A stretch of DNA of 30,524 nucleotides, taken from contig DAIDLK010000002.1 in assembly GCA_027449525.1 (NCBI GenBank), positions 1 through 30,524 of the forward strand. The letters run 5' to 3'. This document shows, piece by piece, positions 22,819-24,492 of this stretch (the stretch's first letter is position 1; every line of letters starts with the position of its first letter). The stretch is from Legionellaceae bacterium. Lineage in GTDB: Bacteria > Pseudomonadota > Gammaproteobacteria > Legionellales > Legionellaceae. The translations under genes and the position numbers were made by a program. The notes below the pieces were generated by a model. It was not told the origin of the DNA, searched no databases, and worked only from the letters and a program-made list of their open reading frames with translations.

Positions 22819-23326
22819 GCGTGTTACGGAGGCTATCCTTTACTTCTTATGTGGTATCACGGTTGTTGCGTTACTTTTTTCGTTGTACATGCAATACGTG
22901 CAAGGTTTAGAGCCATGTCCACTTTGTGCGATGCAGCGTGCCTGCGTGGTTGCGCTACTGGGTTGTTCGCTCACCGCACTGTTGGTGCAAGGCGACCAAC
23001 TGAGACGTTACTTGGTAGCACTCCAACTTGTGTTTTCGCTCTGCGGCTTGTATTTTGCTTTACGTCAATTGTGGTTACAATCGTTGCCAACCCCACATGA
23101 AGCCATCTGTTTGCCTGGGTTGGAGCTGCTCGCCCGTTACCTTCCTTGGCGTGATTTAGTGCAGTTATTGTTTTGGGGATCCCCTGCCTGCAACGAGGTA
23201 TTATGGCAGGCCTTTGGTTTTTCGATGGCGGCGTGGTCTGCCTTGTTTTTTTCGACGAGTGCGGCGGGAGTTATCTGGTTGCTGGTTTACTTTCATCGCG
23301 GTAAGGTGAGGCTCAGACGGCAGTGA
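22811..23326 (+). CDS. dsbB: Disulfide bond formation protein B
   Basis: PCPLCAMQR (CXXC), four TM segments and a second Cys pair (AICLPG...SPACNEV). Start ATG 22811 overlaps the eno stop. Confidence 0.92.
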   Translation: MPKRVTEAILYFLCGITVVALLFSLYMQYVQGLEPCPLCAMQRACVVALLGCSLTALLVQGDQLRRYLVALQLVFSLCGLYFALRQLWLQSLPTPHEAICLPGLELLARYLPWRDLVQLLFWGSPACNEVLWQAFGFSMAAWSALFFSTSAAGVIWLLVYFHRGKVRLRRQ

Positions 23327-24492
23327 CCGCGAGATTTTATTGTACGCTATTAGCGCGCCATCCGCGCAATCAAGCACGGGTCATGCGCATCACCACCGCG
23401 CATGGTGAGTTGATTACCCCAGTGTTCATGCCCGTTGGAACGCGTGCGGGCGTTAATAATATCATGCCGGATGCCCTCCGTGCGGCAGGTAGCCAAATTA
23501 TTTTAGGTGGGAACACCTATCACATGTTAGCTGCACCTGGTATGGCGGTGATTGAGCGTGCGGGCGGTATGCACGCGTTTATGGGTTGGCATGGCCCCAT
23601 GTTAACCGATAGCGGTGGCTTTCAGGTGTTTAGCTTGTCTAAAAACAAGCAGATATGCACTATTGATGAGACTGGGGCGCACTTTAAGTGGCCAGGCAGC
23701 GATCGCTTGATTCACATGACCCCGGAGATGTCGTTGGCGACGCAAAAAAGTATTGGCGCGGACATTATCATGGCGTTTGATCAATGCACCCCGGATGCTT
23801 CGACAGAAGCTGAGGCGGCCGTTATCATGCAGCGGACGCACCGTTGGTTGTTGCAGTCCATTGCCTATCACGCCAGTTATCCAACTTCTAAGCAGGGTGC
23901 ACCACAAGCACTGTTTGGTATTGTGCAAGGTGGTGTGCACGAACACCTGAGGTGTGAAAGTGCGCAATTTATTGCAAGCTCTGCCGTCGACGGGGTGGCT
24001 ATTGGTGGGGAGACGGTCGGGTTTAATATGCCGCGTACCGTGGAGCTCATTCGTTGGATTGATGCTGAGTTGCCGACGAACAAGCCACGCTATGCGATGG
24101 GGGTTGGCATGTCTCCGCAAGATTTATTGGACGTAGTGGCAGAAGGGATTGATATGTTTGATTGCGTGGCGCCGACTCGCAATGCACGGCACGGGGCACT
24201 GTATTGTGGTAGGCTAGAACCGGATGGGCACTGGTTGCGTTTTAGCAGTGACTACCCACAGGGCCGTATTCAAATTAAAAAAGCAGTTTTCGCGCGCGAT
24301 TTAGCGCCGATTATGCCGGATTGTACCTGTTATACCTGTGCACATTATTCGCGCGCTTACCTGCATCAATTGTTCAAACAGAAAAGTATTGGCTTTGCGG
24401 CCTTAGCCAGTATTCATAATATTCATGTCTTACACGATGTTTGTGCTAAAATGCGCAATTTGATTTTACAGGCCAGCAACTTGACTGGATGA
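23323..24492 (+). CDS. tgt: tRNA-guanine(34) transglycosylase with an atypical base-binding loop
   Basis: TPVFMPVGT, NTYH, LTDSGGFQVFSL, MAFDQC, FGIVQGG, MGVG, DMFDCVAPTR and Zn site CTCYTC...HN. GTG start overlaps the dsbB stop (GTGA). Confidence 0.93.
   Translation: MTARFYCTLLARHPRNQARVMRITTAHGELITPVFMPVGTRAGVNNIMPDALRAAGSQIILGGNTYHMLAAPGMAVIERAGGMHAFMGWHGPMLTDSGGFQVFSLSKNKQICTIDETGAHFKWPGSDRLIHMTPEMSLATQKSIGADIIMAFDQCTPDASTEAEAAVIMQRTHRWLLQSIAYHASYPTSKQGAPQALFGIVQGGVHEHLRCESAQFIASSAVDGVAIGGETVGFNMPRTVELIRWIDAELPTNKPRYAMGVGMSPQDLLDVVAEGIDMFDCVAPTRNARHGALYCGRLEPDGHWLRFSSDYPQGRIQIKKAVFARDLAPIMPDCTCYTCAHYSRAYLHQLFKQKSIGFAALASIHNIHVLHDVCAKMRNLILQASNLTG

Follow-up and report, generated by a model that had tools for sequence, protein, structure and literature searches.

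The window analysed here, a stretch of 30,524 nucleotides (positions 1 to 30,524, forward strand, of contig DAIDLK010000002.1, Legionellaceae assembly GCA_027449525.1), carries a gene for tRNA-guanine(34) transglycosylase (Tgt; TGT for the whole family) with an altered specificity loop, which is the subject of this analysis. The window genome is a 1.13-Mb metagenome-assembled genome (MAG) of the Legionella family and is 70% complete. The open reading frame (ORF) and the motifs within it are listed below; one-letter residues are numbered as in the window protein and three-letter residues as in the Zymomonas mobilis enzyme, unless Escherichia coli is named. AF2 stands for AlphaFold2.

23323..24492, + strand: tgt, tRNA-guanine(34) transglycosylase, GGE-type (Legionellaceae form), 389 aa (PF01702, TIGR00430).
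23500..23541, + strand: I60-L-G-G-N-T-Y-H...A70-A-P-G, with an extra Gly and with LRPG changed to AAPG (alignment).
23608..23619, + strand: D96-S-G-G, the catalytic/base-binding Asp (Z. mobilis Asp102; alignments).
23680..23703, + strand: H120-F-K-W-P-G-S-D in place of F(R/K)SxxDG, the site of E. coli R112 (alignment).
23776..23787, + strand: F152-D-Q-C, with D153 (Asp156) and C155 (Cys158) kept and Glu157 replaced by Gln (alignments).
23926..23928, + strand: Q202 (Gln203), the O6-binding residue (alignments).
24004..24024, + strand: G228-G-E-T-V-G-F234, the specificity loop, with Leu231 replaced by Glu, Ala232 by Thr and Glu235 by Phe, and with Val233 kept (alignments).
24097..24117, + strand: M259-G-V-G-M-S-P, with the Met260 equivalent kept and one residue inserted relative to MGVG-KP (alignment).
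24157..24168, + strand: F279-D-C-V, with the nucleophile D280 (Z. mobilis Asp280, E. coli D264; alignments).
24214..24261, + strand: insertion of 16 aa (~L298-Q313), an extra beta-hairpin in the model (alignment, AF2).
24322..24417, + strand: Zn subdomain with C334, C336, C339, and H365 and the dimer-interface helix H341-Y-S-R-A-Y-L-H-Q-L (alignments).

The product scored 391 bits with PF01702 and 372.3 bits with the Tgt equivalog model TIGR00430, above the curated cut-off of 306.75 bits; with TIGR00432, the model of the archaeal TGT inserting 7-cyano-7-deazaguanine (preQ0), it scored 88.9 bits, below the cut-off of 350 bits. A whole-genome search of the MAG for TGT-family genes revealed only this tgt and one degenerate paralogue, and ORF 23323-24492 is, judging from its residues, the sole catalytically intact TGT-family gene found there. 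An archaeal-type or DpdA-like enzyme was ruled out by the family scores and by the lack of a further TGT-family gene in this search. The best 120 database relatives were 72–86% identical to the window Tgt, and the named ones belonged to Legionella, Tatlockia or Legionellales.

Residues were mapped in a HMMER alignment to Z. mobilis Tgt (PDB) and in a MAFFT alignment with 15 other gammaproteobacterial Tgt, including that of E. coli. The family was represented by 17 genomes in the MAFFT comparison, by a 27-sequence family alignment, and by 121 sequences (the query and its best 120 homologues). A first-pass annotation of this DNA had described the catalytic Asp motifs (DSGG, FDQC, FDCV) and the Zn site as intact, and both alignments agreed with this description. 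D96, D153, Q202, G229 (Gly230), D280, and the Zn ligands were invariant in the 27-sequence family alignment. V232 (Val233) and C155 (Cys158) were kept in the window Tgt; all 121 sequences had Val/Ile and Cys, respectively, at these positions. The motifs GGE[TS][IV]GF, DSGGFQ, AFDQC, and FDCVAPTRNARHG were present in 121 of 121 sequences, and the mean column identity of the catalytic copy in the family was 77%.

The extra Gly, the change of LRPG to AAPG, and the replacement of FKSxxDG by FKWPGSD, all noticed in the first-pass annotation, were recovered in the alignments, and every listed change was common to all 17 family genomes compared. The motif ILGGNTYHML(C/A/S/V)(A/S)PG was found in 17 of 17 family sequences; in the other gammaproteobacterial Tgt the corresponding motif ended with LRPG in 14 cases out of 15, and the extra Gly occurred in none of the 15. 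The one-residue insertion in MGVGMSP is an additional change, which the annotation had not listed. The insertion preceding the Zn domain was also confirmed, its length being 16 aa by alignment (residues ~298–313) instead of the ~17 aa given previously. It follows ARHGALYCG and was present in 17 of 17 family sequences and in a genome of another family (G027, 99% complete), but in 0 of 15 canonical Tgt. In the AlphaFold model of the window Tgt (predicted local distance difference test, pLDDT, of 83; predicted template modelling score, pTM, of 0.85), the strands of the hairpin comprised residues 297–301 and 304–308 with pLDDT values of 90–94. K285 and K292 of E. coli Tgt contact the tRNA stem within the same monomer (PMC13416341); the inserted hairpin sits between the positions of these contacts, which are occupied in the window Tgt by Gln and Ala, respectively. 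A short C-terminal helix, the last structural feature of the annotation, was evident in comparison with Z. mobilis Tgt only; in comparison with E. coli Tgt (375 aa) the length was equal, allowing for insertions.

Tgt, a textbook example of an enzyme that modifies tRNA, is also a target for anti-virulence drugs, and the accepted account of how it selects its substrate rests almost wholly on one switch, formed by Leu231, Ala232, and Glu235 in the Z. mobilis enzyme. In that enzyme, the Leu231/Ala232 peptide flips between the carbonyl-out form, which binds 7-aminomethyl-7-deazaguanine (preQ1), and the NH-out form, which binds guanine, and Glu235, deprotonated or protonated, backs either peptide form (PMC3660597). 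The remodelled loop recognized in the first-pass annotation, GGETVGF instead of GGL(A/S)VGE, was real, and the same loop type was found in all 121 sequences. With this loop the Glu235 "switch" residue is gone, and the Leu231/Ala232 peptide switch with Glu235 backing (loop GGL[AS]VGE) was not recognized in the window Tgt. We infer from the alignments that the carboxylate may have been relocated to position 231, with an aromatic residue occupying the former Glu235 site.

It had been proposed on these grounds that the enzyme is a further TGT subtype, which may insert a base other than preQ1: preQ0, queuine or a host-derived derivative. Both substitutions, of Leu231 by Glu and of Glu235 by Phe, fit this proposal; in the Z. 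mobilis enzyme Glu235 determines which side of the 231/232 peptide is turned to the ligand (PMC3660597), and without an acid at position 235 the NH-out form, suiting guanine N7 and preQ0 nitrile acceptors, could be favoured. A different base would also be consistent with intracellular bacteria encoding 1–5 YhhQ/Vut_1 paralogues per genome. Queuine, however, requires more room: Val233 collides with its cyclopentenediol (PMC6165067), and queuine-type enzymes are marked by the replacement of Val233 and Cys158 and by a GG[LS][AS]G loop (PMC11570991, PMC6165067). The widened queuine pocket (Val233 to Gly, Cys158 to Val) was not found in the window Tgt; both residues were kept, sterically excluding queuine (PMC6165067, PMC11570991). 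The score with the archaeal preQ0-type model (89 bits, cut-off of 350) also speaks against a different base.

The genomic data on queuosine biosynthesis point in the same direction. The window genome carries queC, queD, queF, and queA together with a gene for a YhhQ-type transporter. Its queE scored 347 bits with the gammaproteobacterial model TIGR04349 (cut-off of 300), and the E. coli-type QueE model remained below its cut-off in the search. The queH gene was encoded in 4 of 4 near-complete relatives and was not found in the window genome, which is an incomplete MAG (70% complete); queG (TIGR00276) had no match in five family genomes. Judging from this gene content, it is queH that fills the queG step. 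In the established pathway QueF yields preQ1 and QueA acts on preQ1-tRNA (PMC11130926), and the sole intact Tgt should therefore insert preQ1.

The same was evident outside the family. Of 25 genomes with GGE-type Tgt, 24 encoded QueA and only 3 encoded QueF, a pattern that suggests salvage of preQ1 in the small genomes of Patescibacteria. The queA gene was located within an 8-kb stretch of tgt in 40 of 80 GGE-type loci, among the matches listed. The QueA/QueF pattern points, on gene content, to preQ1 as the base handled by the GGE loop type. A different base is thus opposed by queF and queA in the window genome, by both of these genes together with queH in near-complete relatives, by the kept Val233 and Cys158, and by QueA in 24 of 25 genomes with this loop, and we regard it as very improbable. 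The proposal of the first-pass annotation was therefore upheld as regards a further TGT subtype (a clade of its own with a support of 0.985, see below), while its suggestion of another inserted base was not supported. The annotation had itself named a finding that would speak against that suggestion, and its genomic half was observed: the loop is the norm in Tgt of the Legionella family, with queC, queD, queE, queF, queA, and queH present.

Most likely, the window Tgt inserts preQ1 into G34 of tRNAs with GUN anticodons, as predicted from sequence and gene content. G34 of tRNA-Asp, -Asn, -His, and -Tyr would be exchanged for preQ1, which would then be matured by QueA and QueH. The chemistry would be unaltered, with Asp280 as the nucleophile, Asp102, Asp156, and Gln203 binding the base, and Val233 and Cys158 keeping the pocket small. 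The difference would lie in the way the 231/232 peptide is fixed for recognition of the 7-substituent; the surface facing the tRNA stem would also be altered by the new hairpin and by the loss of K285 and K292.

Transporters of the YhhQ/Vut_1 family (COG1738, preQ0/preQ1 transporter family) were present in 1–5 copies per Legionellaceae genome (G003, G009, G010); the copy of the window genome was located at C9:11221-11676. Several such copies are unexpected in bacteria with a complete de novo pathway.

The relationships of this Tgt were analyzed with a homologue search that was exhaustive over 1.84 billion representatives. The nearest non-Legionella Tgt (P0136, P0137, P0139, P0141, P0145, P0149, P0182, and P0282, the last from Magasanikbacteria) contained the loop GGE[TSD][IV]G[YF] as well as the one-residue GVGxxP insertion of the window Tgt, and a variable insertion was found in non-Legionella GGE-type Tgt at the site of the hairpin. 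LRPG and FRSHLDG were kept in these nearest enzymes, unlike the Legionella enzyme. A DNA pattern for G.A.GGE[TS][IV]GY.M, scanned over one genome per prokaryotic species, matched at least 120 stretches. Among the matches listed, 80 of 80 loci contained a real Tgt ORF; these loci belonged mostly to Patescibacteria (Magasanik-, Collier-, Saccharibacteria, and others), the rest being small proteobacterial MAGs. Three MAGs (L092, L108, and L111) also encoded the extra Gly (LGGNTxHMLxSPG) and represent intermediate forms with Tyr at position 235. Based on these sequences, GGE[TS][IV]G[YF] is the clade-wide loop of a large, biochemically uncharacterised Tgt clade.

In a FastTree phylogeny (LG+gamma, 115 sequences, 358 columns; the comparison set was chosen by the loop motif, which accounts for 7 of the 358 columns), all GGE-type sequences formed one clade with a support of 0.985. 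Legionellaceae, G027, the MAGs L092, L108, and L111, and P0132 formed a clade with a support of 1.0, and Legionellaceae Tgt were far from Tgt of 14 other gammaproteobacterial families. Deep nodes within the GGE clade were weak, with support values of 0.2–0.66. The same separation was visible in a genome search with the Pfam TGT model, where other gammaproteobacterial Tgt scored 516–557 bits versus 375–420 bits for the Legionella-type clade; the best PDB match of the window Tgt was ~262 bits. The position of Legionellaceae Tgt within the GGE clade, far from other gammaproteobacterial Tgt, makes it probable that the native gene was replaced by an acquired one; this copy would have entered an ancestor of Legionellales and related lineages and displaced the native gammaproteobacterial tgt. 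This is the direction of transfer that we infer.

The Legionellaceae gene could instead have arisen by duplication of the native gammaproteobacterial tgt, its likeness to Patescibacteria being due to convergence or to long-branch attraction. The weak deep nodes, the fast evolution and reduced genomes of both lineages, and the choice of the comparison set by the loop motif are compatible with such an origin. Nevertheless, we consider it unlikely: the shared characters extend beyond the loop to the one-residue GVGxxP insertion and the variable insertion at the hairpin site, the clade support of 0.985 was obtained on 358 columns with only 7 of them from the loop, and an unbiased all-against-library search gave GGE-type and not gammaproteobacterial sequences as its nearest hits. 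In addition, a profile of the degenerate paralogue scored 73–78 bits with canonical Tgt versus 33–46 bits with Legionella-type catalytic copies, including that of the window.

A related observation concerns P0140 (L188:5001-6164), a full-length, degenerate Legionella-type Tgt, 40% identical to the window Tgt, with HSGG for DSGG, RRGATDC as its loop, and IGAA for MGVG. Its neighbours on the metagenome contig were a TIR-domain gene, transposases, and an integrase.

The degenerate paralogue of the window genome was found next to queA:

L002:994-1869 (contig C130), + strand: catalytically dead Tgt paralogue (P0122), 292 aa, directly 3' of queA (genome search).

P0122 matched only the C-terminal third of the Pfam TGT model. 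A paralogue was located immediately 3' of queA, on the same strand, in 21 of 21 family loci, and was present as an ORF in 74 of 79 family genomes (about 94%) from many genera; in two of the missing cases queA was absent or lay at a contig end, and these are assembly gaps. The paralogue evolves fast (mean column identity of 36%), and its active site was degraded: Asp102 was mostly replaced by Asn, the AFDEC motif and the loop region were lost or deleted, and the Asp280 position varied. At the same time, the Cys3His Zn site and the AYLHHL interface helix were kept, both at least 90% conserved, and LLxKPG and RSxxDG were conserved. Its AF2 model (pLDDT of 94) was a Tgt-like barrel with a TM-score of 0.78 to bacterial Tgt structures. 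The paralogue profile scored 93–114 bits with bacterial Tgt versus 47–48 bits with QTRT2. The likeness to canonical Tgt given above, together with the position after queA, suggests that the paralogue is the eroded native gammaproteobacterial tgt.

We failed to find the paralogue in G027, G031, G028 or four proteobacterial MAGs with GGE-type Tgt. In G027, the region L059:1492-4004 contained queA-yajC-secD with an empty tgt slot and no paralogue, and its Legionella-type tgt (GGEAVGF, FDECT) was encoded on another contig. In the literature searched, nothing was found on the GGE loop type or on a dead Tgt paralogue.

In two 0.5-Mb single-contig family genomes, G047 and G056, neither Tgt nor the paralogue was found in the searches performed; queA, which was searched for in G047 only, was absent. 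The whole Tgt/paralogue/queA module may have been lost together in these genomes. One further hit, in the MAG G114 (L187:1296-2036, on a 2-kb contig), was a fragment of a normal canonical GGLSVGE tgt beside a Fic-domain gene and was not used; it is possibly a binning contaminant, or the genome holds both types. The same MAG also holds the closest non-Legionella GGE-type Tgt.

Co-folding of the window Tgt with the paralogue, performed for the heterodimer only, gave an interface score (ipSAE, interaction prediction score from aligned errors) of 0.92 versus 0.00 for the best of three controls; the mark for this score was reached in a benchmark by 58 of 80 solved complexes and by 2 of 110 mismatched pairs. 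At least 98% of contacts were common to the runs, and the partner had a pLDDT of at least 87. The predicted interface was the canonical Tgt dimer interface, formed by the beta1-alpha1 loop, the Phe92 region, and the Zn-subdomain helix; residues 71–72, 76, 79–80, and 337–361 of the window Tgt took part in it. Interface positions of the paralogue were more conserved than the rest (0.62 versus 0.38, p=1.7e-7). In E. coli Tgt, a single residue was seen to contact tRNA across the monomers, namely R112 of the F(R/K)SxxDG motif (PMC13416341). A basic residue was found at this position in 16 of 21 paralogues, in 11 of 15 canonical Tgt, and in 4 of 17 Legionellaceae catalytic copies. The window Tgt and the paralogue probably form a heterodimer, as the structural model predicts. 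The native gene would thus survive after queA as a dead partner, making a catalytic/non-catalytic pair with the window Tgt.

An ordinary homodimer, with the paralogue being a decaying remnant or a protein of unrelated role, is a possibility to be taken seriously, though not the one we favour. G027 has this Tgt type without the paralogue, and the catalytic copy retains most homodimer interface residues: F86 (Phe92) is kept in the window Tgt, and of the aromatic cluster of the Zn subdomain (Trp326, Tyr330, His333), Y346 (Tyr330) is kept, with Trp326 replaced by Tyr and His333 by Gln. A remnant would also be consistent with the fast evolution of the paralogue (36% mean column identity) and the loss of its central region in some species, and E. 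coli Tgt can almost do without tRNA contacts across the monomers (PMC13416341). Simple decay, however, is hard to reconcile with an ORF intact in 74 of 79 family genomes, two of the misses being assembly gaps, with the conservation of the Zn ligands and the interface helix at 90% or more, and with interface positions that are significantly more conserved than the remainder. The confident fold of the paralogue, the co-fold score of 0.92 versus 0.00 for the best control, and the joint absence of Tgt and the paralogue from the two 0.5-Mb genomes, with queA also missing in G047, argue against it as well.

Taken as a whole, the data make it likely that the window gene encodes a functional Tgt of the GGE-type clade, which inserts preQ1 and is an acquired copy that displaced the native one, with the dead native paralogue as its probable partner. 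Several points weigh against this interpretation. The loss of Glu235 could alter the preference among guanine, preQ1, and preQ0, a change invisible to gene content, and biochemical data on any GGE-type Tgt were not found in the literature searched. Long-branch attraction could inflate the GGE clade, and the tree is in practice unrooted. The central barrel of the paralogue is variable or deleted in some species, and since G027 lacks the paralogue, this Tgt type presumably works alone there. Finally, because the predicted interface is the canonical one, the co-fold result may stem from the similarity of the pair to QTRT1/QTRT2 and to Tgt homodimers of known structure. A stronger version is put forward only tentatively and is rather doubtful as a whole: an acquired Tgt that reads preQ1 without Glu235 would obligately pair with the eroded native Tgt, whose remaining role would be to hold the tRNA as a non-catalytic subunit, and the two would be an independently evolved bacterial counterpart of QTRT1/QTRT2.

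The window Tgt shares with the bacterial Tgt of Z. mobilis, E. coli, and Thermotoga maritima (EC 2.4.2.29) the fold, Asp102, Asp280, Asp156, and Gln203, Gly229/230, Met260, Val233, Cys158, and the Zn site; its partner genes queA, queF, and (in near-complete relatives) queH are likewise present. It differs from them in the GGETVGF loop, the change of Glu157 to Gln, the loss of LRPG and FRSxxDG, the extra Gly, and the 16-aa hairpin. The tRNA contacts Y35, K285, and K292 of E. coli Tgt are R, Q, and A, respectively, in the window Tgt, and the gene lies outside the queA-tgt-yajC slot.

Eukaryotic QTRT1/QTRT2 resembles the Legionellaceae pair in consisting of a catalytic subunit and a dead paralogue keeping the Zn site and the dimer interface, with an equivalent interface in the co-fold; a second, dead TGT paralogue with both of these features was found in the same genome as the window Tgt. 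The two pairs differ in their independent origin and in the far stronger erosion of the Legionellaceae paralogue (208–292 aa), and the pairing is predicted here by a model. Unlike QTRT1, the catalytic copy is not of the queuine type because its pocket is small (Val233, Cys158).

The queuine-salvaging Tgt of the Chlamydia trachomatis type resembles the window Tgt in belonging to an intracellular bacterium and in having a specificity loop that departs from the canonical one. In queuine-salvaging bacterial Tgt, Val233 is replaced by Gly, and the genomes lack queA, queG, and queH (PMC11570991). In contrast, Val233 is kept in the window Tgt, queA and queF are encoded in the window genome, and queH is encoded in 4 of 4 near-complete relatives.

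A clade of Legionella, related proteobacterial MAGs, and many Patescibacteria lacks the switch, yet its gene content implies the use of preQ1. Should preQ1 indeed be the base of this clade, the accepted model of recognition would not hold for all Tgt, and inhibitors or RNA-labelling tools optimized for the enzyme of E. coli or Z. mobilis may then perform differently with that of Legionella. The Legionellaceae pair, if confirmed, would show that TGT made of a catalytic and a non-catalytic subunit arose twice independently, and a tractable bacterium would become available for testing why TGT requires a second subunit, a question of long standing.

The genomic surroundings of tgt include the following upstream gene:

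22778..23326, + strand: dsbB, directly upstream of tgt with a 4-base overlap (PF02600, 106 bits).

The tgt ORF starts with GTG and shares these four bases with the dsbB stop; dsbB was the direct upstream neighbour of tgt, on the same strand, in 14 of 16 family loci. A gene for an APC-family amino-acid permease lies 8 bases 3' of tgt in the window. Just past the permease, at 25847-29002 (− strand), the window contains a 281-aa ORF without a Pfam hit and a 760-aa ORF with weak TPR hits, which are possibly lineage-specific secreted proteins.

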